Shown: piece after piece, positions 1,687 to 20,353 of the stretch | Numbering within the stretch: the stretch's first letter is position 1 | Layout: every line of letters begins with the position of its first letter | Source: Planctomycetota bacterium | GTDB taxonomy: Bacteria > Planctomycetota > UBA8108 > SXIK01 | Assembly: GCA_965223265.1 (NCBI GenBank) | Contig: OZ244999.1 | Span: 1 to 64,000, forward strand | DNA: 64,000 nucleotides | Direction of reading: 5' to 3' | Notes under the pieces: generated by a model | What the model was told of the DNA's origin: nothing | What the model saw: only the letters and a program-made list of their open reading frames with translations | Databases searched by the model: none | Program-made: the position numbers and the translations under genes

Positions 1687-1719
1687 CTTCTCTCTTCTTT
1701 TGTTGCGGCTGCGCCGCCG

Positions 1720-2748
1720 TCACTCGCGGGTGCGTCGAGCAAGACGTCTCACGGCACCGGTGGCAGAAAACGAAACCTGCCAGTTGTGCCACTTCGGAGC
1801 CTGCACGACTTTTTGCTCGAGCAGACGCAACAAGCAGCCGGCAAGATTGCCGGCCGCCAGTGCGCGGAGTCCGACGTAGGAAGTTGTCACCCGCGGATTG
1901 ATTTCGACGACGACGTCGCCACCTGCATTCCCTGTGACATCGAGGAGAAGATCGACGCCAACGAATCCATGGAGTCCCGAGACCGAGGCGACCGCTTTGC
2001 GCGCGAGTTCGACAGCGCGCTCCTGCAGGCCACTCGTTAACGGCAGGCTGCCGCCGAGGTAGCGGAATGTGCCGTCATTCGACAGGTTTTGTTCACACGG
2101 CATGAGGGGAAGGAATTGATCGTTGCCGACGATTGATAGCACGCTGACAGGCATCCCCCCATGGTACGGCATGACAACCAGATCGGTGTCGGAGGCGATT
2201 TGTTTTGGCCACTTCTCGAGCAGTCGTACACGCTGCGAACCGGCGCCGTGGCGTGGCTTTGTCACCCACGGACCAGGACCAGGTGGCGCGTCTGGAGCCA
2301 AACGCACAGTTGTTAGAGCAGGGATTTCCTTTTCTCGCAGGTGCGCGGCGCACGTTAGTTTGTCGGAAGCGAGTGCCACACCCTCGGCTTTGGAGCCAAG
2401 GAGCTGGGCGCCGCAAGACTCGGCCCGGCGCACCAACTGCAGTGCGATCTCCTCCGACTCTGGGGCGACGATCAGGGACGCGTCGCATTTCTTGACGAGC
2501 TCGTCGAATGCTTGCTCCCTCGCATCGTCCGCGTCGACCGCGAAGAGCGTCAGCTGGTCGCTTTCTGGAAGTGCAGAGTTCGTCGCATACCGGCGGTCGA
2601 TTGTCGCGCAGACGTTGACGTCCGGAAGTGCCGAGAAGTCTGTCAGCAGCGAGGTCAACATAGCCCAGCCTTCGCTCCCTAACGAATCCGGTAGGGAGCG
2701 GTTCGCGAATCCCCCGCCCGTGACATGTTCATAGACGAAAATGCGCAT
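1720..2748 (-). CDS. ATP-grasp ligase, Orf1/MfnD-like (tyramine-glutamate ligase family)
   Basis: Start moved to ATG 2748 (MRIFVYEHVTGGG...SEGWAML). LIVAPE, SDK, KPRHGAGS, GFVGVD, EINPRVTTSYVGL motifs. Confidence 0.85.
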   Translation of the reverse strand: MRIFVYEHVTGGGFANRSLPDSLGSEGWAMLTSLLTDFSALPDVNVCATIDRRYATNSALPESDQLTLFAVDADDAREQAFDELVKKCDASLIVAPESEEIALQLVRRAESCGAQLLGSKAEGVALASDKLTCAAHLREKEIPALTTVRLAPDAPPGPGPWVTKPRHGAGSQRVRLLEKWPKQIASDTDLVVMPYHGGMPVSVLSIVGNDQFLPLMPCEQNLSNDGTFRYLGGSLPLTSGLQERAVELARKAVASVSGLHGFVGVDLLLDVTGNAGGDVVVEINPRVTTSYVGLRALAAGNLAGCLLRLLEQKVVQAPKWHNWQVSFSATGAVRRLARRTRE

Positions 2749-2951
2749 ACACTGGCCTCGTTTACTATGGCAACGAGTCACTTCGACGCGGCCGTCTTGA
2801 CTCGTGAGTTTCGTTGTTGGGCGTCGCTCTCCAAAGTCGAGTTCGGCGTCGGGAGTTTGGTTCAGGTAGTGCGACGATCCGAATTCATCCCTTCCCACTC
2901 CCATGGGCCGTGCCGAAAAGGTCGCGGGGCGCGAAGGGACAGCCTCCTTTG

Positions 2952-5474: not shown

Positions 5475-5525
5475 CGACCGAGAGCTCCACCGCGACGATG
5501 AGATTATTCTATGCTCGTTGAGGGT

Positions 5526-5543
5526 TGCATGTTATAGCATGCA
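5526..5543. promoter_or_regulatory. 18-bp near-perfect palindrome, putative operator in a divergent intergenic region
   Basis: TGCATGTTATAGCATGCA matches its reverse complement at 16/18 positions; AT-rich against a GC-rich background. Confidence 0.45.
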
Positions 5544-5686
5544 CCCGGTCCAGCCGGTCAGGGATTTCCCGATAGATCCGAGACCGCGCCGCGGCTAGTT
5601 TTAGAGGCGCGAGCCGAGCACTCAAGCAGAGCGGCCGCGACGCACGCGAGCGGCCAACGGCCTACCTTTTACGGAGGATTTTTAGG

Positions 5687-5890
5687 ATGTCAGTCGCAAA
5701 GGTTACGGAAATCAGTTCGACTTCGAAGAAGAGCTTCGATGACGCCATCGAGGCCGGCATCGACCGCGCGAACAAGACGCTGGACAACATCTCGGGGGCG
5801 TGGATTCAAGAGATGAAGGTTGACGTCGACGGCGGCAAGATCAAAGCCTACCGCGTCAACATGAAGGTGACGTTTGTACTGAAGGACTAA
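5687..5890 (+). CDS. Dodecin family protein
   Basis: 67 aa, GGAGG RBS; SVAKVTEISSTS..SFDDAI..GI.RA.KTL...YRVNMKVTF pattern. Confidence 0.88.
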   Translation: MSVAKVTEISSTSKKSFDDAIEAGIDRANKTLDNISGAWIQEMKVDVDGGKIKAYRVNMKVTFVLKD

Positions 5891-5974
5891 GGACTCAGTG
5901 CGAGCCTGACATTGACGCTCGGTGCGCATTGCGCCGTAGCGCCGCGACTCGTCGTCAGCCGTCGCCTGCATCTC

Positions 5975-6697
5975 GTGGAAATCTATCCAGTTCTCGACAT
6001 TCGCGGTGGCGTCGTGGTTCACGCTGTGCGCGGGCAACGTGACTCCTACCAGGAGCTGCGTAGCCGCTGGGCTCAGAGCGCCGAACCGGTAGAGGTGGCG
6101 GCCGCAGTGCGCCAGCAGTTCGGCCTTTCGACCTGCTATGTGGCGGATCTTGACGCATTGGGTGGCGGTCAGCCGGCGCTGGAGACGTTCGCTGCCTTGA
6201 AGCGCGCCCGGTTTCGACTACTCGTCGATGCGGGAAGTCGCGACGTCGCCAAGGCGGAACTGTTGTTCGAGCACGGCGTCGACGAAGTTGTGGTCGCGCT
6301 CGAGTCGAGTCCCGAGCTGGACGAGCTCGCCGCGTTGGTCGAGAGGTGCGGCAGCGATCGCATCGTCTTTAGCCTCGACTTGATGGGCGGCGTTCCCATG
6401 GGTACGAAGATGCCGTGGGGTGTGACCGAGCCGCGGACGATCGCACGAGCGGCCTACGGCGCGGGTGTTCGCCGCATGATCTTACTCGACCTGGCGTATG
6501 TTGGCAGCGACGCTGGTCCCGTCCTCGCCAAGCTTCTTGGCGAGTTGAACGACCAGCACCCTGACGTGTCGTGGATCACCGGCGGGGGCGTGCGCAGCAT
6601 CGCCGACCTCGAAGCGTACGAACGTGCCGGGGCGAGCGCCGTGCTCGTGGCCACGGCGCTGCACGACGGTCGTCTTGTGCCGCCGCTTGCCTCCTAA
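5975..6697 (+). CDS. HisA/HisF-related TIM-barrel protein, Orf17-like (C1 cluster)
   Basis: Probable GTG start 5975. IYPVLDIRGGVVVHAVRGQRDSY, YVADLDA, VDAG, FSLDL, LLDLAYVGS, GGGVRS, LVATALHDG motifs. Confidence 0.85.
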   Translation: MEIYPVLDIRGGVVVHAVRGQRDSYQELRSRWAQSAEPVEVAAAVRQQFGLSTCYVADLDALGGGQPALETFAALKRARFRLLVDAGSRDVAKAELLFEHGVDEVVVALESSPELDELAALVERCGSDRIVFSLDLMGGVPMGTKMPWGVTEPRTIARAAYGAGVRRMILLDLAYVGSDAGPVLAKLLGELNDQHPDVSWITGGGVRSIADLEAYERAGASAVLVATALHDGRLVPPLAS

Positions 6698-6731: not shown

Positions 6732-7952
6732 TCACTTCGAATCGGGCAGCGGCTTGATCCAAAGCTGGCTGAAAAAGACCTGGCCGTGGTCGCCCTGGAT
6801 CTTGAACGTGTCGGGTGCAGGTTTCTCGGTCTTTTTCCCGTGATTGTCGGTTCGCGTCGCGCACTGGCGCCCACTGTGAATCAGCTGGCCGTTCTGCCAC
6901 GCCGAGATTCTCATGCCGTCGAGCTTGGCAAAGATGTGATTCCACTCGTTCGGCCCATGGCGTGCTGCTGCCAGCGGCGCATACAGGGAATAGAGCGCGC
7001 CATCGCCGTGTTTTCTGTCGATGGATCCATCCTTGTAGATCTGAATCTCCCACTGATTCCTGAAGTAGAAACCGCTGTTGCCGTTTTCTGCCTCAGCGCT
7101 CGGGTTGCTCTTGTAGCAGTAGTAGACGAGGAAGTTTTCGAACTTCTCGTTGGTCCAGATGTCGAATCCTTTGCTGCCATGGACGATGTTGGAGAAGGCG
7201 TGGTCTTTGACGGCCCAGCCGGATGTGATGTCTTTGCCATCAGCGTGGAAGGCTGAAAGGTCCTTGCCGTTCCAGATCGGACGCCAACCCGAACCGGGTC
7301 CGAAGAGGGGTCGGATGCGAACGCTGCGGTACCAGACGTGACTGTGATTGCCTTGGAGCATGAGCGGGCCGCGTAGAGGAGTGAGTTCCTTCTCGTCGTT
7401 CGCCGACATCTCACCGCCGGTCGGCTTCGGACTATAGACGTTGTCTTGAATCAAGACTCCGTTGTGCCACACAGTGATGTGGTGGCCGATGTGAAGGACA
7501 CGGAACGTGTTCCACTCGCCTGGGGGGCGCTGAGCGTTGCGAAGCGGCAGAAAATCGCCGCCGAAAACCGAGCCGGCATCGACGGGGCGCAGCTCCGAAG
7601 CATCCTTGCCATAGCTGTCGTAGATCTGGATTTCTACCTGACCGCGCAGGTAGACGCCGCTATTGCCCTTGGGCGGAATGCGGTAATCGATCTCGAGCTC
7701 GTAGTTTTCAAACAGTTCCTTCGTGCAGAGATCGTTGACCTTGTCGCGTGTGTTCGTCATGGCGCCGTCTTCGATGCGCCACGCCTGTTGGTGCTGCCGC
7801 GTTTCGCTCGGATGGTTCGGCTTGGCGGCGCGCCAGGCGTCGAGGCTCTGGCCGTCGAAGAGCACGATCCATTTGCCGAACTCCTCGCTTTGACCGTGAG
7901 CAAGCGGCGATGCGATCGCGACAGCAAAGAGCCAAGAAAACATGCGCTTCAT
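6732..7952 (-). CDS. Exported tandem DUF1080 (3-keto-disaccharide hydrolase-like) protein
   Basis: Signal peptide; two copies of LFDG/IWNG...NSG.Y.R...EIQI...GEWN...LQG.H..V.(Y/F). Confidence 0.85.
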   Translation of the reverse strand: MKRMFSWLFAVAIASPLAHGQSEEFGKWIVLFDGQSLDAWRAAKPNHPSETRQHQQAWRIEDGAMTNTRDKVNDLCTKELFENYELEIDYRIPPKGNSGVYLRGQVEIQIYDSYGKDASELRPVDAGSVFGGDFLPLRNAQRPPGEWNTFRVLHIGHHITVWHNGVLIQDNVYSPKPTGGEMSANDEKELTPLRGPLMLQGNHSHVWYRSVRIRPLFGPGSGWRPIWNGKDLSAFHADGKDITSGWAVKDHAFSNIVHGSKGFDIWTNEKFENFLVYYCYKSNPSAEAENGNSGFYFRNQWEIQIYKDGSIDRKHGDGALYSLYAPLAAARHGPNEWNHIFAKLDGMRISAWQNGQLIHSGRQCATRTDNHGKKTEKPAPDTFKIQGDHGQVFFSQLWIKPLPDSK

Positions 7953-8192: not shown

Positions 8193-8999
8193 TTGGACCT
8201 CTTTCTCAAGGATTCGGTTGCGGTTGTTATCGGTGGAGCCCAGGGCATCGGCCTGGCTGTCGCGAAGGAATTGGCACGTGAAGGAGCCCGGGTCGCCGTC
8301 GTCGACCTTGACGTCGCCGCTGAAGAGGTGGCTACGAATCTGAAGTCCGAGTGCGGCGTGGACTCGATCGGCGTGGTCGCGGATGTCACCGAAGCTCAAG
8401 CGATGTCTCACGTCGCCAAGCATGTCGACGCGCAGCTCGGTCCTTGCGAGCACGTGATCTGCACGGCAGGAATCGGCTCGGGGAAGTTCGGCTTCCCGTT
8501 TTGGAACCTCGAGCCGAGTGACTGGGATCGCGTCGTGAAAGTGAATCTCATCGGCACGGTCAACGTGGCGCACGCCTTCACCCCCGGGTTCGTTGAGCGG
8601 CGGCGCGGCGACTTCTTGTTCTTCTCCTCTGTCGCGGGGCAAATTGGCTCGCAGACGGATCCACCCTACAGCGCAGCCAAGGCTGGAGTGATCAACTTCA
8701 CGCAATGCGCCGCGAAGGACCTGGCTCCGTATCGAGTGCGCGTCAACTGCATCTGCCCAGGGATGGTGAAGACCAAGATCAACCGCTCCGTGTGGGAGTC
8801 TCTCAAAGCGCAGGACCCGGCGGCGGCGGGCGCGAGCTACGAAGAGTGGGCCGACGCCAAGGTACGCCAGGTGGTACCGCTGGGACGCTGGCAGGAGCCC
8901 GAAGACGTCGCGGCGATGTGTGCGTTCCTGGCGTCACCGCGAGCCCAAGCTGTCACCGGTCAGACGATCAACGTCGACGGCGGCTTCGTCATGCACTGA
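8193..8999 (+). CDS. Short-chain dehydrogenase/reductase (classical SDR)
   Basis: Probable TTG start after AGGAG; GGAQGIG, SS...YSAAK, VNCICPG, TGQTINVDGG. Confidence 0.88.
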   Translation: MDLFLKDSVAVVIGGAQGIGLAVAKELAREGARVAVVDLDVAAEEVATNLKSECGVDSIGVVADVTEAQAMSHVAKHVDAQLGPCEHVICTAGIGSGKFGFPFWNLEPSDWDRVVKVNLIGTVNVAHAFTPGFVERRRGDFLFFSSVAGQIGSQTDPPYSAAKAGVINFTQCAAKDLAPYRVRVNCICPGMVKTKINRSVWESLKAQDPAAAGASYEEWADAKVRQVVPLGRWQEPEDVAAMCAFLASPRAQAVTGQTINVDGGFVMH

Positions 9000-9050
9000 T
9001 GGAGTTGACTCAAAAGGTTGTGACCACCAGACCCGTGAATGGGCGCCTCG

Positions 9051-12000
9051 TCAGTCACACGCTGAGTGCGATCGGCAACTGAGAATATCGGGCGTCGGAT
9101 CGAAGCCGCAACCGGCGAACGGCGCCGGCGGGGTGACACTTTCGCCACGGAAGAGATGGAGCAGAATGTTGAGCGCGTCGGTGACGTTGATGCGTCCGTC
9201 GTCGTTGGCGTCCGCGGCACTCAGGCAAGAAGGGATTTCGCCGCGGCGGAAAAGGAGATTCAGCACCTGCAGCGCATCGGAGAGATCGACCGTAGAGTCG
9301 GCATTGACGTCGGCGCGCCGGAAGCGGCTGCCTGAGCCGAGAGGTGTCCGCGCCCACGACTCGACGCCAACCTCCGCGAGGACGTCGAAGTTTTCGCCAA
9401 GATAGGCAGCACGCCGCATCAAGGGGCGATTGGGATCATCGAAATCGACACGCTCGTCGAAGAGCTCGACGGCGTGGATCGTTCCGTCGACTGCTGCCAG
9501 GTCGACCGGCGGATCGAGAAGGACCCAGTAGCGCACGTCGGAGTTGTGCTTGAACGCGGAATAGACGAGTCGAAAGTAGTCGCCCGTTGACCGGGTTGCT
9601 CCGCCGATCGAAAGAGTCGCGCTCTCGAGCATTGCTGGCGAGGTCGAGAAGATCGTCCGATCGTCATCGAAGCGCTCTTCGAGCACCAGAGTGGTTCCAT
9701 CGGCCAGCGTCGCATCGATGCGTCCGGCTGGAAGTTGAGTGTAGCGACACGATCCGTAGCGCAGCACTGGGTCGCCATCGAGCTGACCCTGAATGGCTTC
9801 GTTGCCTGGATCAGCGGTCAGAAAGTCTTCGTCGATTGTGAGACGCGCGTCGATGGGCTCGTCGCCGTCGGCGCGGAATTCGAGAGGAGTGACGATCTCG
9901 AGTAGCAGCTCCCGTGCTCCCGGTAGCTCGAAGAACTGCGCGTAGGTGAAGCGGTACGTGGTTTGGCGGTTGCTTCCTGGTGAGCGCTGCACGGTGAAGC
10001 GACCGGAGTCGACGGGGACCGCCACCTCGCGCCCCGGCCCGACGATGACCTCGTCAAAAATCTCCGCAGTAAAACCTTCGGCGAGCGTCTCGAGGCGAAT
10101 GACACCGCTCTTCAAACGCACAGTCGATTTTAGCTGCAGTTCGTCGCGTGGTCCGCGGCCAGCGCCGGCGAGCGCGAAGACACCGCAGGCCGTCGTATTC
10201 GGTGGAATCTCAAGCTCGAACACCGGTGCAGCCGGGAGATCGCCGAGGAGGAACGGTCGCACCTGTTTCACCGCGAGCTCGCCGTCCGGCATGAATTTGA
10301 ACTCGAGGTCGAGGAGAACGTCTCGGCGTGAGAATTCTCCGAGCTCGAGTTCGTAGTTTTGGTCGATGTGCCACATGAGCTCACCGAGCTCGTGCAGCTG
10401 CGCGTCGCTCAAGACGTACTCTCCCGCGGGAAGAAGCGACGAGACCTCCACGCGAACGATCCGTGTGATGCGGCCTTCGATCACTTCGAGCAGGGTTCTC
10501 TCGGCGCGCACGCCAGGGTCGGGGCTGACGACGCTTTCCTCTCCAGCCTGAACGGTGATCACGAAGCGTCGATCGAGAGCGTTCGACGGGTTGCCCGTGA
10601 AAGCGACGCCATTGGCCGCCTCGTCAATGAATGTACGGTTGACCAGGATGCCCATCGACGTCGGCTCCTGAGGGATGCCGAAGAACTCTCTCTCCTCGAA
10701 GGCTCGGAAGTTCCAGAGACTGCTCCAGACTCGTTTGAGAGCTCGTGCGATCGTGCGTTCGTTTTCCCGCGTCGCATCGCACAGCGAAGGGCCAGCCGTG
10801 TCGGCGTCGAGGTCGTCTGCTACACAGCCTGACGTGGAGTCATAGAGGCCCGCGCCGCTGAAGAGGAGTCCGTCCTCGACGTTTGATGACGAGCGGAATC
10901 GAACTCGTGTCGTTGGTTCGGCCCCCATCACTTCGGCGACGCGGGCGGCGATCGTCGCAACGAGCGCGGGATCGACTTGGCTTTCAGTGCGCATGTGGTC
11001 GCGAAGAGCGCTCAGCGCCTGCGCGCGGAAGCGAGAGTCTGTTCGAAACGCCTCGAAGCTCAGCAGTTCGGCGATGTATTCCTCGTAGCTCACGAGGTGT
11101 GTGGCGTTAGCCAACGACGGCAGTTCATTCGAGCGCAGAAACTGTACGTAATATCGCACGGGAATTGCGAATCCACGTTCGATGTATTGGCTCCACGGGG
11201 GATCTTGAAGAATGCGCTGCAGCCTGGCGAGTCCTGTCGCTTTGCCACCGACACGCGACACACTGAGTCCAGTTTCCGGTTCCGCAGCAGCATCGAAGGC
11301 AGAGATCTCAAGGAGGGTCGGGAGGGCGCCGAACTGCTCGTCGCGTCGTGGCTCGATGGGCAGCGTCGGTCGGCTTTCCCAGAATTCTATCGCTTCCGCG
11401 ATTTCCCCGACGCGCACGAGGAGGCGATCGCTCTGCACCTCGAGTCGAACAAGCTCGCCTTCGAGAGGTGCGAATGTCTCGAGTGCCGTCGCCGAGAAAG
11501 CGTTCGGCGTGCCGCGGCCTGCGGTCCGGATGAGCAGATGGCTCAAAGCGGTCTGCGGTTCCGTCGTGACAACACCGCCGAAGACGCCTTCGATATCGCG
11601 CGGCGCATGGTCGAGAACGAGGATGTCCTGGAAGCTGATTTCGCCGCCGGAGTTGGCCTGCTCAAGGGCGTCGGCGTCAAGGATTCGAACGCGTCCGAAA
11701 CCAACGCCCGTGGTGTAAGCTTGATACGCTCTCGCGGTGTCTCCACAGATGGTGAACTGCGTGTTCGTCCACGTACTCGAAGCTTGTCGGGCGAACGTGT
11801 TGTCAGGGAAGTAGCAGAGGGCGCCCAGATCGAACGCCTGAGTCAGAGCGGTGTGCACTGCGGTGACCTCGTCTTGCGAGAGGACTTCGTCCGTGCTCGA
11901 CGTATCGACGGCGACGGTGAACGCGAATCTCGGATCTGTCTCCGATCCGGGATCGACCTCGACCTCGACTACGACTCCGACGTAGTAGTCGCGCGTGCGT

Positions 12001-14555
12001 CGACGGCCGACGAGCGTGTTGTACTGCTCCGCCGTCAGCGCTGGGAAACGATCGGGAAACACTCGCGCGAGGAACTCCTGGTGCAGCGAGTAGCGTTTTG
12101 TGTTCTGGAACAGCGGCGGCAGTAGAGACGGATCCTCCGGGCGCGCGGGGACGATGTACTTGTTCGCCCGCCTATCGCTCGACGAGCGAATCGAGAGCGC
12201 GTCGAAGTCATCGGGGGTACACAGCGTCTCGAGAAAGTCGATATCGAGGCGACGCGTCTCGCTCGTGTTGGTGAGGTGGGTGATCTCGGCGGAGTTCCGA
12301 TCGAGCGAGACCACGTCGACGTCGCCGTCGCTGTCGAAATCGCCGTGAACGACGTAGCGCGGCCCGTCACCGACGGGGAAACGCAACTCTCTGCGGAACA
12401 GGCCGTCGCCCTCGCCGATCAGTATGGTCACCGAGCTGCTGTCTTCATCGGCGGTGACGAGGTCCGTGGCGCCGTCTCCGTCGATATCTGCAGCGCGCAC
12501 GGAATATGGTTCAACACCAATTGGAAAGAGCTGTGGCGGACCAAACGTTCCGTTGCCACTGTTGAGGATGACGCCGATCTCGTCGAGTCCCTCAATGGCT
12601 GCAGCGATGTCGGGCGCGCCGTCGCGGTTGAAGTCACCGACCGCGACCGAGCGCGTGCCACCGGAAATCGGGTTCACCCCCAGGAGAGAAAATGACGCAG
12701 CCCCATCGTTTTCGAGCACCCAGATTTCGGAGGAGGTTCTCGTGGCAACAGCGAGGTCGGAGTCCCCGTCGCCATCGAGATCGGCAGCCTCGAGCTCCCA
12801 GGGTTCACGCCCGACAGCAACCTCGAACGAGTCGGCGAAAGAGCCGCCGCCGTCGTTGAGAATTATGCTCAGGTTGTTCCCCAGCTGGTTGGCGCTGATG
12901 AGGTCGGGCGCACCGTCACTGTTGAGGTCGCTCGTCTCGACAGAGAACGGTCGCTGGTCAGTCGTCGCGTAGAGCCACCTCTCGAACCCACCCGTACCGT
13001 CATTGAAGAACACCAGCAATTCGTTGTTGAGGCGATCAGCGAGCACGATGTCGACAGCGCCGTCGCGGTCGAAGTCGGCGGAATCGATGAAGTTAAGATC
13101 TCGTCGGCCGTTGTTCGCTGCACTGGACGGGGTGTCAGGCGGCGTCGTTTCGACCGGTTGATCGAGAAAACCATCGCTGCGGCCGAAGAGGAGAGAGAAG
13201 TTTTTGTTGAAGTTGCCGTTCGCGGTGGCCACGTCGAGCCTGCCATCGCCATTGAAATCAGCGACGGTGCCACTGTGGGGGCGAATGGTGATTCCCACCG
13301 TTGTCCGCTGCAGATCGAGAGCCACGCCGTCGCCGTTCCAGAGCAGATTGAGTTCGTTCGGGCTCGAGAGCGCGAGTTCGAAGTCACCATCGCCGTCGAA
13401 GTCGCCGGCGCGAACGTCCAAGATTCCTCGGCGTACATTCGGGGCAACCGCGGTGGTGCCAAACTCACCTGCACCATCGCCTGCCAGAACGCGTACTTCG
13501 CCGTTGATGGCATCGAAGATGGCGATGTCGATGTCACCGTCGGCGTCGAAGTCGTCGGCTGTAACGACGCGCGTGACGATCTCGAACGTCTTGGCGATCT
13601 CGAATGTCCCATTGCCGTCGCCCGCTAGTAGAGTCACGTCTCGACTGTTGGTCGTGAGGACGTCATGGGTGCCGTTGCCATCGAAGTCGCCTACACACAG
13701 CGCCGTAGGGCGTCGTCCGGTCGGGAAGGTGGTCGCGGGATCGAATGTACCATCGCCACGATTGCGAAAAGCCATGAGTTCGCTGGCTGTGGATTCGGCG
13801 ACGACAAGGTCGAGGCGAGAGTCTGCGTCGACGTCGGCGACGTCAACGTCGACCGGCGTGGGCCCGACCTGGACGACTGTCGGCGCGTCGAAGGTGCCGT
13901 CGCCGCGGTTGGTGAACACCTGGGCGGCGTCCTCGCCAACGTTGATTGTTACGAGCTCGGGACGACCGTCGCCGCTGAGATCTCCCGTTTTGACGATGCG
14001 CGTTGCAGAGAAGACTGCATACTCCACCGGCCTTTCGAAGGTGCCGTCGCCGCGATTGAGAAAGACGAGAAGAACTGTTGAGTTGGCGCTGACAACGTCG
14101 CCGTCACCGTCGCCGTCGAGATCGTCTGCAGTCAGCCCCGAAAGATCGAGGCCAGCGTCATACTCGACGCCCGGAAGGAATTCGCCGTCGGGCCCCGTGA
14201 CGAAGACGACGAGCGTTGACGCTTTCGTGTCGTCGCGAAATCCGGTCACTAAATCGTCGATGCCGTCGCCGTTGACGTCGGCGATGACGACGTCGCGCGG
14301 CTCGAACGGCAGGGTCAAGCTCTGCTCGCCGAACCCAAAGACGATGGGGTCGAGCTCACACTCGTCAGGCGTACCGTCGTCATTGCAATCAGCAGCTGAT
14401 CCAGCAACGACCTCCTCGGTGTCCAACGTTCCGTTCAGGTTGCAGTCCGCTGCGCGCGTGGTCGCCGCGAACGACAACGCGAAAAGACAAAGTGTGCTGA
14501 GGAGAGCGGAAAGACAGGGTGGTGAGGAGCGCTTTCCTGTCGAACTCGGTGTCAT
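9051..14555 (-). CDS. Large exported protein: FG-GAP repeats + phosphohistidine/PEP-pyruvate-binding (dikinase-like ATP-grasp) module + dockerin-like C-terminus
   Basis: Signal peptide; DCN..G..D..E motif; many D(F/L/V)(D/N)GDG..D repeats; QTALSHLLIR, VGGKATGL, GFAIP, RSSSNVEDG..FSGAGLYDS, KRVWSSLWN.RA..ER, ANGVAFT, DLEFK, KQVRP; RRADVNADSTVDLSD tail. Confidence 0.82.
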   Translation of the reverse strand: MTPSSTGKRSSPPCLSALLSTLCLFALSFAATTRAADCNLNGTLDTEEVVAGSAADCNDDGTPDECELDPIVFGFGEQSLTLPFEPRDVVIADVNGDGIDDLVTGFRDDTKASTLVVFVTGPDGEFLPGVEYDAGLDLSGLTADDLDGDGDGDVVSANSTVLLVFLNRGDGTFERPVEYAVFSATRIVKTGDLSGDGRPELVTINVGEDAAQVFTNRGDGTFDAPTVVQVGPTPVDVDVADVDADSRLDLVVAESTASELMAFRNRGDGTFDPATTFPTGRRPTALCVGDFDGNGTHDVLTTNSRDVTLLAGDGNGTFEIAKTFEIVTRVVTADDFDADGDIDIAIFDAINGEVRVLAGDGAGEFGTTAVAPNVRRGILDVRAGDFDGDGDFELALSSPNELNLLWNGDGVALDLQRTTVGITIRPHSGTVADFNGDGRLDVATANGNFNKNFSLLFGRSDGFLDQPVETTPPDTPSSAANNGRRDLNFIDSADFDRDGAVDIVLADRLNNELLVFFNDGTGGFERWLYATTDQRPFSVETSDLNSDGAPDLISANQLGNNLSIILNDGGGSFADSFEVAVGREPWELEAADLDGDGDSDLAVATRTSSEIWVLENDGAASFSLLGVNPISGGTRSVAVGDFNRDGAPDIAAAIEGLDEIGVILNSGNGTFGPPQLFPIGVEPYSVRAADIDGDGATDLVTADEDSSSVTILIGEGDGLFRRELRFPVGDGPRYVVHGDFDSDGDVDVVSLDRNSAEITHLTNTSETRRLDIDFLETLCTPDDFDALSIRSSSDRRANKYIVPARPEDPSLLPPLFQNTKRYSLHQEFLARVFPDRFPALTAEQYNTLVGRRRTRDYYVGVVVEVEVDPGSETDPRFAFTVAVDTSSTDEVLSQDEVTAVHTALTQAFDLGALCYFPDNTFARQASSTWTNTQFTICGDTARAYQAYTTGVGFGRVRILDADALEQANSGGEISFQDILVLDHAPRDIEGVFGGVVTTEPQTALSHLLIRTAGRGTPNAFSATALETFAPLEGELVRLEVQSDRLLVRVGEIAEAIEFWESRPTLPIEPRRDEQFGALPTLLEISAFDAAAEPETGLSVSRVGGKATGLARLQRILQDPPWSQYIERGFAIPVRYYVQFLRSNELPSLANATHLVSYEEYIAELLSFEAFRTDSRFRAQALSALRDHMRTESQVDPALVATIAARVAEVMGAEPTTRVRFRSSSNVEDGLLFSGAGLYDSTSGCVADDLDADTAGPSLCDATRENERTIARALKRVWSSLWNFRAFEEREFFGIPQEPTSMGILVNRTFIDEAANGVAFTGNPSNALDRRFVITVQAGEESVVSPDPGVRAERTLLEVIEGRITRIVRVEVSSLLPAGEYVLSDAQLHELGELMWHIDQNYELELGEFSRRDVLLDLEFKFMPDGELAVKQVRPFLLGDLPAAPVFELEIPPNTTACGVFALAGAGRGPRDELQLKSTVRLKSGVIRLETLAEGFTAEIFDEVIVGPGREVAVPVDSGRFTVQRSPGSNRQTTYRFTYAQFFELPGARELLLEIVTPLEFRADGDEPIDARLTIDEDFLTADPGNEAIQGQLDGDPVLRYGSCRYTQLPAGRIDATLADGTTLVLEERFDDDRTIFSTSPAMLESATLSIGGATRSTGDYFRLVYSAFKHNSDVRYWVLLDPPVDLAAVDGTIHAVELFDERVDFDDPNRPLMRRAAYLGENFDVLAEVGVESWARTPLGSGSRFRRADVNADSTVDLSDALQVLNLLFRRGEIPSCLSAADANDDGRINVTDALNILLHLFRGESVTPPAPFAGCGFDPTPDILSCRSHSACD

Positions 14556-14641
14556 CGATCCTCACGGTTTTCAGCGATCTTCGGACATGAGCCCAGCTCG
14601 GAACTACGAACCAGCCAACGGATATCTTGGGACGTGACGTC

Positions 14642-17600
14642 CTACAGTTCCCGCAAGCAAGTTGTCGGGCATGTGGCGACCGGGATGCAAGCCCCTCCCA
14701 TCGCGTGCGGGGCACCGCCGCGGAACAGGTAGAGGAGCATGTGCAGCGGGTCGGACAAATCGACGGTCGTGCTGCCGTCGGCGTCCATCAGAGCTAGGTT
14801 GCTCTGGGCTTCGAGCGTTCCATCACCACACGGCAGCGAAAACGCCTGGCCCTTGAAGAGGTAGATCAGCAAGTTGATCGGGTCAGAAACGTTCAGGCGT
14901 GCGTCCTGGTTGATGTCCCCCGGCACCTGAAACCCTAGCTGCAGTGCCGGATCCGAGACGCTGTTGATCGCGCCTGGCGTGCCGCCTAGAGGTTTCGAGC
15001 TGGCCCAATTGAGAACCTCGTTGCCGAACTCAGTCGCTGTACGCCGCTCGAGGCTGCTTCCCTCGCCGTCAGGGCTCTCTGGCCACGGGGCGCGATCGTT
15101 GAAACGGACCATGTCGACGACCGTGAATCCCTCCGGCGCATCTCTCGTAGGTTTGAGAAGCCGAAGCCGCTCGCCAGTATTGGATAATTGCCCTCCGAAC
15201 GGTCCGACGATAGTGGCCGCGGGGTCAATGTCGAGAGCGACGCGATAAATCTCTGGGTCGGTCGGAACGATCAGTAGATATCCGGAGGCAGGAACGATCG
15301 AACCGTTTGGGAAAAAGAAATCGTCCTGGCCGTTCGGCGCATTGATGCCGGTCAGTTCCCAGCCCGAGATGTCAATCGGGCTCGCCGTGGTATTGACGAG
15401 CTCAATGAACTCGTCTTCGTCTTGGTCTTCGATCGGGTGGTAGTGAACCTCGTTGATCGCGATCTGAGGCGTACGTGGAGCCGCGTTCGCCTCGCCCAGG
15501 GTCGGCGAGTTTAGGGGGAAGAACTCGAGGCCAGTGCTGGTCTCGTGACGACCGACCGTAGCGCCGGCTTCGACCGCGCTGTACGAGACTGCCGCGATGT
15601 ATCCACTGAACGAGCCGTCCGGGTGGCTCGCTGACAAGAAGAGCTCACCGCCCGTTGGACTCAATGAAAGTCCCAGGTCGGCAGTGGAGAGGACGACATA
15701 CCCGCCTGGCGGCAGTGACGTTGCAGCCGGCACGCGGGCTTCAGCCAGCGCGCTCAAGTCATCTCTTGAAGTGCTGAGGTACCAGCCGCTGACGTTCACT
15801 TCGCGATCGGTGAAGTTGACAAGCTCGATAGAACCCGGACCGTTCCCGGCCACGTCGTCCGCGCCCCGCGCCATCACTTCGTTCACGACGACGCCGCCAT
15901 GCGCGGGCTCAGGGTCCACCGCTCCCGGCGATCCATCGAGTTCAGCGCTTGCCCGCCAGCTTCGCGGATCGTCTGGATCGCTGTCGATGGCGTCCAATAC
16001 GAGTGAGTACCCGAAACCGCTGGGGCCGATCGGCCAGAAACCAGAACTTTCGTAATTCACAGAAAACAGGACTTCGCCCTCTCCGTCGACGAGCTCCACG
16101 CGCTCCCCGTTCCCGGACAGCCGCGCGGTGTAGGTGCCGAACGGCTCGACGTCCGGGTAGCGCTCGCGGAACGATGGTTCATCGGCAACGAGTACGATGG
16201 ATTCGCCGGGAGCGAGCATGTCTCCCGCCCTGAAGGCGAATGAGATTCCATCGCTGAACTGTACGCCGTTGAGATCGACTGCGGTGCCACCGGGGTTTGT
16301 GAGTTCCAGAAACTCGAAGTTGGCTCCAGCGACGTTCTCGTCGCCTTGCGCGTCGTACATCATTTCCGAGATCACGATGAAACCGGGTTGGAAGCCGCTG
16401 ACGATGAACTGCGCTTCGTTCAGAGCACTCCAGACAAGCTCTGTCCCCTCTTCGGACTCCATGCTCGCGAGCGTCCGCGCTTTCAGCAGCCCGTGGCTGT
16501 CGAATCGGATTTCGCCTCCCGCGTAGAGTTGAGCGCTTGGAGACACCTCGCCGGTGCCGAACGTGCGTGGGTCGCTACCGTCAAGTGTGTAGTAGATATC
16601 ACCGACTGTGTCGCCCGGTAGGGAAATCGTCACCGCCGTCTCGCGGGCGATCTCACCACCGTGTTGACTGAACGTAGGCGCATCGACCGGCGGGTAGTAG
16701 CCACGGCGAACGAACTGTGACAGGACGATGTCGGAACGTTGGCGGAAGTAGTTCTGAACCCATCGGAGTTCATTCAACCAATCCTGGCGCGAATACGGAG
16801 GGGACTTTCGTGTGTCGCCCCACCGGGCCGACTCGAGGAGAATCGCTTCGTTCACCTCGCGGGCGCGTCGCATGTAGATGTCGGCGGGTCGATTTGCCTC
16901 GGGCTGAGACGGGTGCCAGGCGCGCCCGCCATCGACATGCAGCACCCCGCCATTGAAGAAGTGACGATGGATGTGATCGGCAAACAGTGTGCGGTAATCA
17001 GCGTTGATTCCTAGACGCGTATAGAACTCGGTTGGTGTGTCCGACACGAAGACACCTGTCTGATTGACCGAAGCGTTCTTCAGCACGTGCTCGGCGTCCC
17101 AACTGAAAAAGCGATAGCGACCATCCGGGGCGCGACGGTATGTCGCGTACCAGTTGTGCCGTGGCCAATCGTCGTTGCCGCAAAAGATGTTGACGATCAT
17201 GTAGTCGATCAGATTGGGCACGTCGAGCATCTCCGCTACTTTGAGGTAGCCCGAGCTGCTCTCGACGCCGTTATTCAAACGAGATCGCAGTTCCTTCCAA
17301 GCGATAGCGTTTCCCTCGACGACGTTGCCGCCGGTGTGTTTGAGGACGTCATACTCCGACTTTAGCCCGCCGTAGTACGCGGCCGAGAAGGAGTCATCCG
17401 GTCGTTCGTGAAGATCATAGACGCCCCAGTAGATGCCGTTGAGGAAAAGGTGGACGAACCGGCCGTGCGGCGCCACGCCATCGGTCAGGATCTGCAAATC
17501 GCTGACAAATTGGTCGCGGATGTACTGAGCCCGGATGCGCTGGCCGTGGTCGGGGTGGTTCCAGGTCAAGTTGAGCCCGGCGTCGAGGACCAGAGCGTCG

Positions 17601-19741
17601 AACTCGCGTACCGGTGAATCCGCGTAGAGTTTGTAGGTGAGTCTTGAGGGGCCATAGCGATTCTTGAAGAGAAGTCGCATAGAGACCTTTTTCGACTTCC
17701 AGCCGCCGGTGCTGCTGCCACCTTGGATACGGATGCCACAGTTGGCCTGAAACCCGACTTCCCCCTGTAGCGGGTCGATGAATTCAACGGATGTCGGCCG
17801 TTCCCAAGCCAGACCGCTGGAGCTTGGATTCTGGTAGATCCCCGTGGCCGGGTCGAACAGATGGACGTCATGCGTCACGACGGACACGGTCGGCAGCGCC
17901 ATGAGTCCTTCCCACGCCAGTTCCGGATTCGGGTCGACGACGTCCGGATCGACCTCGTAGTCGGAAGTTGTGCCTTTCCACGGATCGGGCATGCCGGCTG
18001 GAACTTTCGGTTGGCGAAAAACTCGGTCGGCGAAGACGTAGGAATGCGTCACCACCTCCGATGGAATCAACCCGTCCTTGTAGACAGCCGCGCGGACCAT
18101 TGCGATCGAGCGGTCTGCCAGTGGCTCCACACGCACGCGATCCGTGTAGACCTCGCCGTTCTCCGGGCCTGGTGTCGTCCCGTCCGTCGTGAAGTAGAGT
18201 GTCGCGTTCGGCTCGAGAGTCGAGAGCGTGAGCTCGAACGGTTCAGTTTGGAAGCTCCGTTTGACGCTGAAGCGAGGCGGGCGCGTGAAGCCATGGAGGT
18301 CGATCGTTGCCGCATTCTGTTCCCCGGGCGTCGCCGTCGCGAAGTAGCCGATCTGGCCGTCTTGTGCGACACCGTACGAATAGTCGGCGCGCTGCGCTGG
18401 AAACTCGAACTCGCTGACAAGCGTTCGAGGCGACTCCGTATCGAACAGGCGCAGTGTTTCGCCGTTCTTCTCGAGAGAAAAGTTCGTGTGCAGCTCTTCA
18501 CCGAACCTGCTGCGATCCTTGCGCGACGCGAAGACGACGAGCCGCTCTCCTGCACCCAGGAGGAATCCAGGGAAACGCCACTTCTCCGCGTCGGCCGAAT
18601 CGGTCACGGTCCAGCCACCAAGGTCGACTGCAAAGGAACTCAGGTTCCTCAGCTCGAACCAGTCTTCGTTGTCGCCATCGGAATCGAGTAGACCGACCCC
18701 GTTGGCGGCAAGCACCTCGGTGAAAACGATGTTTGGTGCCGGTCGGTTTGGATCAACCTCGTAAGTCCACCCGTCGCCATCGGGAACAAAACTGTTCGGT
18801 CTTCGGACAGCGTCTGTGATGTCATGGTCGCTGGACCACGTCACGTGTACGGTCCCGGCTGGCAGCGATGGGAAGGCGAACCGATAGGCTTCTTCGTCCC
18901 CTGCGAGGCGCGTGACGGAGGAGGCTGGCACGTCTCCGAGCAGGAGATCCGTTGCATCCACTCCCTGCACGGGTTCATCGAAAACGATGTCGATGCTCTC
19001 GAGCGACTTCAAGACCGCGAGCGGTGTAGGGATGATCTGTGTGATCGTTGGCGGCGTCTGATCTGGCCCGAGGGGGTCGAAGATCTCGACGTCGAGGTAG
19101 TAATCGTTGCTCGTAGGACTGAAGTTAAAACCCTGTGCGGCGATCACGTTGCGACCGGGAACGAGCATCGCCGCCGCGTCGGAGATGACGAAGTTCCGAA
19201 AGCTCCTCGGCGGATGCGTTGAGTTCGACACACTGTCGAACGCAACAAAGTCGCCGGGCTCGCCGGCGACGCGTTCGCGCACGGCTTCGACACCGTTGAT
19301 CCAGAGCAAGAGGCCGTCGTCGAAGCGGGCGCTGAGGGTCAACTCAGTCACCTCTTCGACGTCGCGAATGAAGAACTCGCTACGCAGAAAAACAGATGAG
19401 TAGTTGCCGCGCATTGGCGGTTCGGCCGTGGCGAGGTCCGTTGTCACGGTCACTGCTGTGCCGTATCCGATGGGAAGTGCGCCGCTGAGCCAGGTGCTAT
19501 CGTCGAACTCGGGCTGGCGCCACGCCGTGGGATCTGGAGATGAGGCTTCTTGCGTTCCCGGCAGATACTTCCACTCGCTGCTTCGCTCCAAATAGAGAAT
19601 AAAATCGCCGCGAACGGCGGTTGCTGAGCCCAGCACCACGGCCATGACGCAGGCCTGCTGCAGTGCGGTGCGTAGCCTTTGTCTGTAGACCGCGCCACTG
19701 GATCGACAACCGTCGCTGAGTTCGTTTCGCCCAAGTCTCAT
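14642..19741 (-). CDS. Exported CotH-like kinase with lamin-tail (LTD), FN3-associated and Ig-like domains and a dockerin-like tail
   Basis: Probable ATG 19741 (GGAG RBS). LTD motifs (FTEVLAAN..DWFELRN, ISEMMY..EFLELTN, INEVHYHP..EFIELVN); CotH motifs LFLNGIYWGVYDLHERPD, DWPRHNW, WDAE, ESARWGD; PGDINQDARLNVSD tail. Confidence 0.85.
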   Translation of the reverse strand: MRLGRNELSDGCRSSGAVYRQRLRTALQQACVMAVVLGSATAVRGDFILYLERSSEWKYLPGTQEASSPDPTAWRQPEFDDSTWLSGALPIGYGTAVTVTTDLATAEPPMRGNYSSVFLRSEFFIRDVEEVTELTLSARFDDGLLLWINGVEAVRERVAGEPGDFVAFDSVSNSTHPPRSFRNFVISDAAAMLVPGRNVIAAQGFNFSPTSNDYYLDVEIFDPLGPDQTPPTITQIIPTPLAVLKSLESIDIVFDEPVQGVDATDLLLGDVPASSVTRLAGDEEAYRFAFPSLPAGTVHVTWSSDHDITDAVRRPNSFVPDGDGWTYEVDPNRPAPNIVFTEVLAANGVGLLDSDGDNEDWFELRNLSSFAVDLGGWTVTDSADAEKWRFPGFLLGAGERLVVFASRKDRSRFGEELHTNFSLEKNGETLRLFDTESPRTLVSEFEFPAQRADYSYGVAQDGQIGYFATATPGEQNAATIDLHGFTRPPRFSVKRSFQTEPFELTLSTLEPNATLYFTTDGTTPGPENGEVYTDRVRVEPLADRSIAMVRAAVYKDGLIPSEVVTHSYVFADRVFRQPKVPAGMPDPWKGTTSDYEVDPDVVDPNPELAWEGLMALPTVSVVTHDVHLFDPATGIYQNPSSSGLAWERPTSVEFIDPLQGEVGFQANCGIRIQGGSSTGGWKSKKVSMRLLFKNRYGPSRLTYKLYADSPVREFDALVLDAGLNLTWNHPDHGQRIRAQYIRDQFVSDLQILTDGVAPHGRFVHLFLNGIYWGVYDLHERPDDSFSAAYYGGLKSEYDVLKHTGGNVVEGNAIAWKELRSRLNNGVESSSGYLKVAEMLDVPNLIDYMIVNIFCGNDDWPRHNWYATYRRAPDGRYRFFSWDAEHVLKNASVNQTGVFVSDTPTEFYTRLGINADYRTLFADHIHRHFFNGGVLHVDGGRAWHPSQPEANRPADIYMRRAREVNEAILLESARWGDTRKSPPYSRQDWLNELRWVQNYFRQRSDIVLSQFVRRGYYPPVDAPTFSQHGGEIARETAVTISLPGDTVGDIYYTLDGSDPRTFGTGEVSPSAQLYAGGEIRFDSHGLLKARTLASMESEEGTELVWSALNEAQFIVSGFQPGFIVISEMMYDAQGDENVAGANFEFLELTNPGGTAVDLNGVQFSDGISFAFRAGDMLAPGESIVLVADEPSFRERYPDVEPFGTYTARLSGNGERVELVDGEGEVLFSVNYESSGFWPIGPSGFGYSLVLDAIDSDPDDPRSWRASAELDGSPGAVDPEPAHGGVVVNEVMARGADDVAGNGPGSIELVNFTDREVNVSGWYLSTSRDDLSALAEARVPAATSLPPGGYVVLSTADLGLSLSPTGGELFLSASHPDGSFSGYIAAVSYSAVEAGATVGRHETSTGLEFFPLNSPTLGEANAAPRTPQIAINEVHYHPIEDQDEDEFIELVNTTASPIDISGWELTGINAPNGQDDFFFPNGSIVPASGYLLIVPTDPEIYRVALDIDPAATIVGPFGGQLSNTGERLRLLKPTRDAPEGFTVVDMVRFNDRAPWPESPDGEGSSLERRTATEFGNEVLNWASSKPLGGTPGAINSVSDPALQLGFQVPGDINQDARLNVSDPINLLIYLFKGQAFSLPCGDGTLEAQSNLALMDADGSTTVDLSDPLHMLLYLFRGGAPHAMGGACIPVATCPTTCLREL

Positions 19742-20236
19742 CGCGAGCTCCGTATCGACCGGCGCGTCACTCGATCCACCCATCATCCACACGACCTGTG
19801 TCCCGAGCACTAGCGTCCGCTATCGAGTTTGCCTGATCAAAGCGCGAAACTACGCCTTGAAGCTTCCCGCCGAGAACACCGAATGACCCAACCGATTCTA
19901 ACTGCCGAGCCTATGCCGTCTATGCCTTTTCGTGTGCTGTCTGGTTTTTGACGTGTCCCGACAGATGGAGACTCGGCTTGATCCAGGTGGGACGGAGAGT
20001 GGTGCCCAGGCCGTAAGCACGGTTCCTCCCCGCGCCAGCGCCTCTGTGTGCAGTGAACGTGTTGACTCGTGTTTGGTCCCGCGGGCGTGCCGGAGATGTC
20101 AATGCGATGGTTGGATCGCGGGCGGGAGCGGCCAGAAACACGTGCGACTTGCGTCACCGCAGCCGTAGTCTTGTTAGAAGCGTTCGTCTGCAACATGTCG
20201 CCCTTTCGCATCGCGTCTGCCCACCGTGAGGAAGGA

Positions 20237-20270
20237 ATCTCCGGCGCGGTGTCATCTCCGGCGCGGTGTT
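20237..20270 (+). repeat. 2 x 17-bp tandem direct repeat
   Basis: ATCTCCGGCGCGGTGTC followed by ATCTCCGGCGCGGTGTT, upstream of the glycosyltransferase. Confidence 0.7.
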
Positions 20271-20353
20271 GGCGTCCGCGGCCACTAAGTCTACGCGAGC
20301 GCTTCGAACGCGCCGCCTACGTTCCTCGTTCGGAACGAACCAAACGACTGACG

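Follow-up and report, generated by a model that had tools for sequence, protein, structure and literature searches.

The window analysed here is a stretch of 64,000 nucleotides from a Planctomycetota bacterium (assembly GCA_965223265.1, contig OZ244999.1, positions 1 to 64,000 of the forward strand). On its reverse strand, from 9051 to 14555, lies a gene for a large modular protein. Our preferred reading, held with slightly better than even confidence, is that this protein is an exported, dockerin-tagged phosphotransferase of the dikinase type, with the domain order of glucan-water dikinase (GWD), and directed to its target by beta-propellers. The domain identities, predicted folds, residue conservation, coupled losses and export-type context are what the analysis shows. 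Judged by its predicted structure, the protein belongs to the superfamily of His-relay dikinases. By analogy, its core would possess all features defining the first half-reaction of such an enzyme. We infer catalysis, an acceptor and an external supply of nucleotide. The gene and its parts are as follows:

9051..14555 (-): open reading frame (ORF), ATG start, 1834 amino acids, no stop inside the frame.
14451..14555 (-): residues 1-35, signal-peptide-like leader with K8/R9 in the n-region, a hydrophobic core at 12-33, and TRA/AD after it.
14331..14447 (-): residues 37-75, Cys-containing N-terminal motif (DCNLNG...DCNDDGTPDECE), from the translation and present in the family consensus.
12216..14330 (-): residues 76-780, 14 FG-GAP/VCBS repeats, from Pfam and a motif count.
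11751..12200 (-): residues 786-935, N-domain of the catalytic module, alpha/beta in the AlphaFold2 model.
11406..11738 (-): residues 940-1050, phosphohistidine-type swivel domain, from VIA-align of the predicted structure.
11538..11540 (-): codon of His1006, candidate phospho-carrier, from translation, conservation and models.
10233..11336 (-): residues 1074-1441, dikinase-type ATP-grasp (PPDK_N), from Pfam, Foldseek and VIA-align.
9339..10223 (-): residues 1445-1739, C-domain, nearly all beta strands according to DSSP of the model (660-954 in model numbering).
9168..9314 (-): residues 1748-1796, type I dockerin, from Pfam Dockerin_1.
9054..9167 (-): residues 1797-1834, Cys-rich C-terminal tail, followed by the stop codon at 9051-9053.

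The catalytic module is defined as residues 786-1740, so that K14 and H40 in module numbering are K799 and H825. It was modelled with AlphaFold2 from 49 sequences (mean predicted local distance difference test, pLDDT, 86.7; predicted template modelling score 0.71). A second AlphaFold2 model covers residues 786-1077 (mean pLDDT 91.3). Note that a preliminary description of the gene, made from the DNA letters, had quoted several motifs. All are present where it placed them: SHLLIR starts at residue 1005, GGKATGL at 1103, RSSSNVED at 1221, GAGLYDS at 1234, DLEFK at 1416 and KQVRP at 1430, and the His1006 codon is at 11538-11540. Its FG-GAP, PPDK_N and dockerin calls were each matched by Pfam in a scan of the whole protein. 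The ‘swivel-like segment’ that it pointed out sits inside 300 residues without assignment, and an invariant N-domain of 150 residues, with K799 and H825, precedes the swivel.

The ATP-grasp was detected by profile, fold and residue conservation. Pfam recognises PPDK_N (PF01326) between residues 1100 and 1434, with E 8.1e-18 and a score of 65 bits, the cut-off being 27. Foldseek, given the module model, matched rifampin phosphotransferase (RPH) 5hv1 with E 8e-15 and a TM of 0.72 on the isolated ATP domain; other matches were phosphoenolpyruvate (PEP) synthase (5e-11), HpeI (1e-9) and PPDK (1e-4). VIA-align of model residues 289-707 gave Z 29.0 for RPH (297 residues aligned, root-mean-square deviation, rmsd, 2.4 A), Z 27.3 for PEP synthase 2ols and Z 20.2 for PPDK 1dik. 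Identity over the structural alignments with dikinases is 16-24%. Comparison of the 1834-residue protein with NCBIfam gave partial, far sub-threshold likeness to PEP synthase, prodigiosin ligases and RPH. In hidden Markov model (HMM) alignments, the GGK and RFRSSS of the family fall on the GGK and VRSS of PEP synthases, with the GGK Lys and the RSS Arg matched. According to a passage of PMC4844700, Lys22 of the GGK motif is essential in RPH, while Arg117 and Thr136 are required for transfer to rifampin.

The corresponding residues are strongly conserved. K1105, R1221, E1418, Q1431 and R1433 do not vary in any of 49 sequences and, together with R1219, are each retained in at least 97% of roughly 255-260 relatives. 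Counts from 261 aligned family members are 253/258 for K1105, 255/260 for R1221, 253/255 for E1418, 252/255 for Q1431 and 253/255 for R1433. An inserted loop of the ATP-grasp is closed, in the predicted pairing, by C1244 (kept in 256/259) and C1259 (256/256). Altogether, 20 conserved grasp positions are essentially invariant in the family. Every catalytic-type residue examined is present in the window copy and in all 35 paralogs of the genome. Note that we take E1418 and Q1431 to be the acidic/Gln pair near the C-terminal strands by analogy with PPDK rather than from a residue-level structural alignment. The preliminary description had proposed a dikinase-type ATP-grasp with intact nucleotide motifs, to be compared with RPH by AlphaFold and Foldseek; the Pfam, Foldseek and VIA-align scores and the conserved motif residues agree with it on both counts.

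Directly before the ATP-grasp, residues 940-1050 adopt, in the model, a phosphohistidine swivel fold. VIA-align superimposed model residues 155-265 on RPH 753-867, the swivel domain with His825, with 99 residues aligned at an rmsd of 2.5 A (Z 10.9). When 48,161 chains were compared without bias, RPH came first (11.3), followed by Enzyme I (10.6, 10.2 and 9.6) and the C-terminal domain of a Bacillus pyruvate kinase (10.4). Aconitase X (9.2), PPDK (8.4) and the PPDK carrier domain 2fm4 (7.8) follow lower down. Seven of the eight highest-ranked entries represent His or swivel domains from proteins of the dikinase or phosphotransferase system type. Across both comparisons, the RPH His domain matched with 99-106 residues aligned and an rmsd of 2.5-2.6 A. 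In both models, His1006 opens helix 221-229 (module numbering). It is invariant in 49 of 49 sequences and kept in 249 of 254 among the 261 aligned members. Further conserved residues, P985, T997, Q1001, R1010 and N1018, lie on the swivel surface. Hence, the swivel-type His domain that had been proposed ahead of the ATP-grasp (940-1050, with the grasp at 1074-1441) holds at the level of predicted structure.

Sequence families give a different view of the same segment. The preliminary description had suggested a check for PEP-utilizers. For residues 780-1100 searched alone, neither PEP-utilizers (PF00391) nor any other Pfam family matched at E<=10. Among paralog segments, 3 of 31 match PF00391 (best E 0.028), and a genome scan with this family returned only six canonical proteins at E<=0.001. 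The family recurrently matched is GWD1_pHisD (PF22973), found in 26 of 31 paralog segments (best E 8.4e-5). Control scans of the N-domain and C-domain alignments found no family in more than two members. Over six frames of the genome, GWD1_pHisD has 27 matches at E<=10; all 27 are in ORFs of the family, at the same position, and none is in a canonical dikinase.

If His1006 and the nucleotide site cooperate, joint loss is the expected pattern. Five members, all from other genomes, have no His at this position (P0012, P0042, P0051, P0185 and P0218), and they have lost 13, 12, 8, 6 and 1 of the 20 conserved grasp positions. For the 249 members with the His, the largest loss is 4; all others have lost at most 2. 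The one-sided hypergeometric p is ~3e-8. We take this only as an indication of cooperation, since the threshold was chosen with the data in view and the five members may be relatives of one another. In the degenerate members, 4-5 of the five conserved C-domain residues (C1457/C1603, R1628, H1670 and N1671) are intact, with 5/5 in four of them, and the proteins are still full-length. Members that combine His loss with a degraded grasp are likely pseudo-enzymes. Since four of the five lost many grasp residues, non-catalytic versions exist. The same could in principle apply to the window protein, with the core transferring no phosphate and serving a surface adhesin as a scaffold, either structural or for ligand binding, as the retained C-domain residues and full length of the five would allow. 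We consider this very unlikely, because all catalytic-type residues examined are intact in the window copy and all 35 paralogs, where the grasp is the most conserved region.

Two further domains flank this core. The N-domain (786-935) is predicted as alpha/beta, with pLDDT mostly >90 in the second model. It has no Pfam match, alone or over 32 paralogs, and no PDB sequence match. Its K799 and H825 are invariant in 42 sequences, including distant relatives. The C-domain likewise has no Pfam match, alone or over 33 paralogs, no PDB sequence match and no Atlas hit; Pfam on residues 1435-1740 alone gave 0 families at E<=10. Since it is nearly all beta strands, it is not a TIM barrel. The PEP-utilizers_C family has no Pfam match either, in line with the earlier remark that no PEP-binding TIM barrel can be recognised. 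The C-domain is absent from members of ~700 amino acids and from some giant proteins. Note that fold searches with the two models returned lists filled by the grasp or the swivel, and we make no claim of fold novelty for either flanking domain.

That the grasp and His are conserved while no acceptor domain is recognised would also fit a simpler activity. The module could bind or hydrolyse extracellular nucleotides, as an ATP pyrophosphatase, scavenger or sensor, with no transfer to an acceptor; propellers and dockerin would then only position it at the cell surface. There is a precedent, in that RPH variants retain ATP pyrophosphatase activity without phosphorylating the acceptor, as a passage of PMC4844700 describes. 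We regard this alternative as unlikely. The invariant K799 and H825, with the conserved swivel surface, suggest a second docking site, and the diversity of propellers among the 35 paralogs speaks for many targets.

Several observations place the protein outside the cytoplasm. By hydropathy, residues 12-33 are the sole strongly hydrophobic stretch of the protein. A hydrophobic N-terminal segment is present in 35 of 35 paralog ORFs, and DCNxNG follows directly in 33 of these. Between the 33 long paralogs, median pairwise identity of the Cys-containing N-terminal motif is 51%. In all five ~700-residue homologs inspected, a lipobox-like Cys follows the hydrophobic leader. The signal peptide of the preliminary description therefore stands as a leader-like segment, judged by hydropathy and context. 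Elsewhere, the family is fused to FG-GAP, Lcl_C, lamin-tail (LTD), beta-helix, BNR, Fn3-associated, TSP3, dockerin, proprotein-convertase P-domain (P_proprotein) and EF-hand domains, all of them extracellular types. In the sequences seen, the family is always accompanied by export signals or such partners. The earlier proposal of an extracytoplasmic setting thus has sequence evidence throughout the family, and export of the window protein is likely.

The C-terminus also fits surface display. Dockerin_1 matches residues 1748-1796 with E 3e-07 (30.9 bits against a cut-off of 22.9) in the whole protein and E 4.9e-09 in the tail alone, and a whole-genome scan recovered it at the same place. Cys 1777 is within the dockerin, and cysteines 1816, 1827 and 1833 are in the tail; 33 of 33 long paralogs have 4 Cys within the last 110 residues. 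In the genome, Dockerin_1 has at least 109 matches, counted from 150 scored of 481 candidates, and Cohesin has 3 above its cut-off. This suggests, from sequence, a cohesin-dockerin display system in a planctomycete. Near 9.019 Mb, a 646-residue ORF bears both cohesin and dockerin.

The protein might instead not be exported at all, if the leader were an uncleaved anchor or the start were wrong, and function in the cytoplasm like other dikinases. This is a highly improbable explanation. It gains from the poor specificity of the hydropathy test in this genome, and it is opposed by the dockerin, the FG-GAP repeats, the Cys-rich termini and invariant Cys pairs, the lipobox-type leaders of short homologs and the exclusively extracellular-type partners.

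Between the leader and the module lie the propellers. Pfam matched FG-GAP_3 (E 3.6e-78, 11 stretches) and FG-GAP (E 3.5e-26) in the whole protein. We counted 14 DxDxDG-type Ca-loop-like repeat motifs, spaced by 45-61 residues. This number would be enough for two seven-bladed beta-propellers, an arrangement deduced from the repeats. Against the PDB, the propeller matches of the family profile were an FG-GAP secreted esterase, CRTAC1 and the PVL GlcNAc lectin, and by these sequence matches we describe the propellers as lectin-like. Among the 33 long copies, median pairwise identity is 30% for the propellers, 39% for the C-domain, 47% for the N-domain, 55% for the His domain and 60.5% for the ATP-grasp, the most conserved part. 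Since the propellers vary most, the two of them most likely select the target.

The preliminary description had treated the gene as a one-off. Its layout stood, whereas the gene proved to be one of a large family. In the window's genome (one contig, 9.18 Mb; coordinates given as G000), tblastn found 36 places: 35 intact ORFs and 1 fragment. Of the intact ORFs, 33 are of ~1800 amino acids with propellers and 2 are of ~1070-1100 without. At G000 8070854-8071303 (-), a 437-residue ORF matches only the first ~150 module residues, corresponding to the N-domain, and is probably a remnant. Ten of the 35 copies, the window's included, are closer to a copy in another genome than to their own paralogs. 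Hence, part of the paralog diversity is old. For the window copy, identity is 61% to P0003 and 55% to the best paralog.

Other copies form tandem arrays (G000 2309095-2320559, 4619817-4642312 and 8240356-8282298), where modules are 98-100% identical and propellers 31-41%. Within one or two 150-nucleotide windows, DNA identity jumps from ~50% to 97-100%. In the arrays at 2.31 and 4.62 Mb, the jump is close to the junction of propeller and module. In the 8.24-8.28 Mb cluster, the identical tract starts ~100-150 codons inside the module, and in some pairs identity falls again near the grasp/C-domain junction. Such abrupt switches in sequence identity point to gene conversion or cassette exchange.

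The family extends well beyond this genome. With residues 790-1740 as query, a word-seeded search scored 8000 candidates, of which 270 matched. The 120 matches listed are nearly all of ~1800 amino acids with the same Pfam content and come from metagenome-assembled genomes of Planctomycetota; where they carry a name, it goes no further than ‘VCBS repeat-containing’ or ‘PEP/pyruvate-binding domain-containing’. Searched with a profile, 1.84 billion representatives yielded 4279 clusters at E<=0.001, of which 1701 reach E<=1e-30. Among relatives of the same family, order or class, 25 of 26 carry the family, with 1-10 matches each compared with 34 here. Of 121 genomes sampled evenly across the phylum, only 5 match at E<=1e-20, counting this one. 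Named records with relatives are mostly from Planctomycetota and also from Verrucomicrobiales, Omnitrophota, Sumerlaeia, Anaerolineae and Myxococcota (Nannocystis, Anaeromyxobacteraceae); those from Myxococcota match only the first ~650 module positions. Three distant relatives of 746-1032 amino acids (L120 1787-4219, L121 1339-4437 and L122 1323-3563, all on the reverse strand) have leader-like N-termini. They carry EF-hands or a proprotein-convertase P-domain ahead of an N-domain, His domain and PPDK_N core, with the two-Cys loop absent. Two of the three have weak GWD1_pHisD matches (E 0.035 and 0.048).

The genomic surroundings of the gene begin with its upstream neighbour, on the same strand and separated by a gap of 86 nucleotides:

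14642..19810 (-): CotH kinase-like protein, 1722 amino acids.

By Pfam, this neighbour has four lamin-tail domains (LTD, E 8e-55), CotH (E 1.5e-17), Fn3_assoc and CHB_HEX_C_1, and it ends in a dockerin-like tail. A scan for promoters and terminators over 8800-20300 found no terminator-like site in the gap, and its counts were at chance level. CotH-like genes are also directly upstream of the family copies starting at G000 2309095 and 8246052. The neighbour may or may not be functionally linked to the dikinase-like gene. Proteins sharing its domains occur at 68 tblastn places in the genome (E<=1e-10), ~23 of them covering the CotH region. Downstream of the window gene is a convergent short-chain dehydrogenase. 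Across loci of the family, recurring neighbours mainly reflect synteny among close relatives or common families, such as ABC ATPase, sulfatase and xylose-isomerase-like; also recurring are a reelin-subrepeat protein (6 loci) and four Pfam-less families (5-9 loci each), two of which were scanned. Elsewhere in the window, 6732-7952 (-) encodes a 406-residue protein with two stretches matching the 3-keto-disaccharide hydrolase family (E 5.7e-70). At 601-6697 and 23021-24430 are a hydantoinase_A-like protein, ATP-grasp_3 with a pre-ATP-grasp domain, a HerA-like ATPase, a His_biosynth-type barrel, and a DUF6513 plus pterin-binding protein. This set may resemble the methanopterin-linked one-carbon clusters of Planctomycetes.

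These surroundings, with the distribution and the mosaic paralogs, bear on another possibility, namely that the protein is an effector delivered to prey or competitor cells, using their ATP, with the propellers as receptor-binding part. Relatives are indeed found in Myxococcota (including Nannocystis) and Omnitrophota, lineages some of whose members are predators or depend on a host. The paralogs are highly diversified, with a receptor-like part evolving by recombination-driven mosaicism, and the problem of ATP supply would vanish. Set against this, no immunity-like gene is adjacent at the window locus, where the downstream gene is the convergent dehydrogenase, the Pfam scan found no injection or translocation domain, and there are no conserved neighbours. 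Furthermore, a variable N-terminal propeller joined to a constant enzymatic part is the reverse of polymorphic toxins. We judge delivery as an effector distinctly unlikely.

Returning to an exported dikinase-type phosphotransferase, we compared it with known systems. In GWD and PWD (EC 2.7.9.4 / 2.7.9.5), the phospho-His domain comes directly before the nucleotide-binding domain. The window protein shares this architecture: putative substrate-binding modules, then the phospho-His domain, then PPDK_N on the C-terminal side, with no PEP/pyruvate TIM barrel. GWD1_pHisD is the only family that recurrently matches the His segment of its paralogs, always under the curated cut-off, and, as a lead only, a plant cluster with PPDK_N and GWD1_pHisD is among Atlas look-alikes at 0.91. 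The window protein differs in having, by the whole-protein Pfam scan, no CBM45 or CBM20 and FG-GAP propellers instead. It also has the extra N-domain, all-beta C-domain and dockerin, and is predicted to be exported, whereas GWD and PWD are plastidial. A 2026 review describes a His domain with an essential His in GWD and states that no high-resolution GWD/PWD structure exists (PMC12892837).

RPH (RPH-Lm; PDB 5hv1, 5fbu) gives the closest structural match to the predicted model in both catalytic domains. Like RPH, the window protein has no PEP-binding barrel and, by analogy, would phosphorylate an acceptor other than pyruvate. The domain order is reversed: a passage of PMC4844700 gives that of RPH as grasp, rifampin-binding domain and C-terminal His825 domain. 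No rifampin-binding domain is found in the window protein, which scores 14.4 bits with NCBIfam RIF_Ptrans_rph against a cut-off of 999, and RPH is cytoplasmic. PEP synthase and PPDK share the ATP-grasp family (PPDK_N), aligned GGK and RSS motifs and a swivelling His domain. They differ in that the window protein has no PEP-utilizers_C barrel, no PEP-utilizers match and a His domain before the grasp; NCBIfam PEP synthase models, whose cut-offs are 598-883 bits, give scores of 38-40.

Dockerin-bearing CotH kinase-like proteins of cellulosomes, whose role is described in a passage of PMC12484212 as not yet clear, offer a precedent for an ATP-dependent phosphotransferase-type domain displayed on a dockerin outside the cell. 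Their protein-kinase-like fold is unrelated to the ATP-grasp and His relay. The RPH paper notes a ‘large unexplored group’ of such enzymes (PMC4844700). Our literature search, with supplementary files outside its scope, found no paper on the family or on a secreted, extracellular or periplasmic dikinase. To our knowledge, every His-relay dikinase described so far works in the cytoplasm or in plastids. What is new compared with known dikinases is the exported context, the GWD-like order, two domains that have no sequence family, and paralog expansion with mosaic evolution.

By analogy with PPDK, PEP synthase and RPH, Mg-ATP would be bound by the ATP-grasp. His1006 would attack the beta-phosphate, with AMP departing and the gamma-phosphate passing to water or phosphate. 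The swivel domain could then ferry the phosphoryl group to an acceptor held by the N-domain, the C-domain or the propellers. The target would probably be a polymer, for instance a glycan, in the periplasm or outside the cell; through its dockerin, the enzyme would be tethered to a surface protein that carries a cohesin. The preliminary description had put forward a glycan, a protein or a small molecule as acceptor. A polymer of the glycan kind is our first guess, because the propellers appear lectin-like and vary most among paralogs, and because GWD is the nearest architectural analogue. In its boldest form, the proposal is that these proteins are extracytoplasmic polymer dikinases, bacterial counterparts of the plant starch dikinases, which would use up nucleotides beyond the cytoplasm to phosphorylate, and thereby loosen or tag, glycans or further surface polymers. 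Each of the 35 paralogs would have a target of its own, set by its pair of propellers, and all would share one catalytic cassette kept uniform by gene conversion. We consider this full version doubtful.

A number of points weigh against our preferred reading. We know of no bacteria that hold ATP outside the cytoplasm, so an exported nucleotide-dependent enzyme would be left with no obvious energy source. The Pfam and PDB sequence searches of the N- and C-domains named no acceptor-binding domain in the module. Around the 35 paralogs and 79 foreign loci, there is no dedicated or conserved partner gene pointing to a substrate. The case for catalysis, by the window protein and by the family, is an analogy drawn by computation. 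A crude hydropathy test for leaders was dropped as specific evidence of export: 170 of 193 family members pass, and so do 783 of 1302 long ORFs of the genome. Since the test is unspecific here, we do not lean on the count.

The remaining points concern the His domain. Aligned by hhalign with the six canonical swivel domains of the same genome, the family segment gave E 0.13 and a probability of 0.5%. A PDB sequence search with its profile found, at best, the isolated PPDK carrier domain 2fm4 with E 0.27. Searched against 56,268 six-frame ORFs of the genome, the family HMM retrieved the 35 family ORFs and then none below E 0.4; the six canonical swivel proteins were not retrieved. Every GWD1_pHisD score in the genome is below the cut-off (best 24.4 bits against 27), and the window copy itself, one of 8 paralogs with no GWD1_pHisD match, matches neither this family nor PEP-utilizers. 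Because its segment matches neither family, the phospho-His assignment of the window copy rests on paralog homology and fold. Similarly, because the profile comparisons are not significant, the swivel assignment rests on predicted rather than solved structure. Three weak alignments (PEP synthase HMM, hhalign and PDB profile), individually not significant, all place His1006 on the catalytic His.

If our preferred reading is correct, the family would be the first exported branch of the His-relay dikinases, with at least several thousand sequence clusters. One would then have to ask what powers nucleotide-dependent chemistry outside the cytoplasm, a question that applies equally to dockerin-bearing CotH proteins, and planctomycetes would need a supply of ATP in their periplasm or on the cell surface. 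Should the acceptors be polysaccharides, their phosphorylation would add a new step, one that involves no hydrolysis, to the ways in which Planctomycetota and relatives process polymers. The family is also a clear example from nature of an unchanging catalytic cassette joined to fast-diverging targeting domains.

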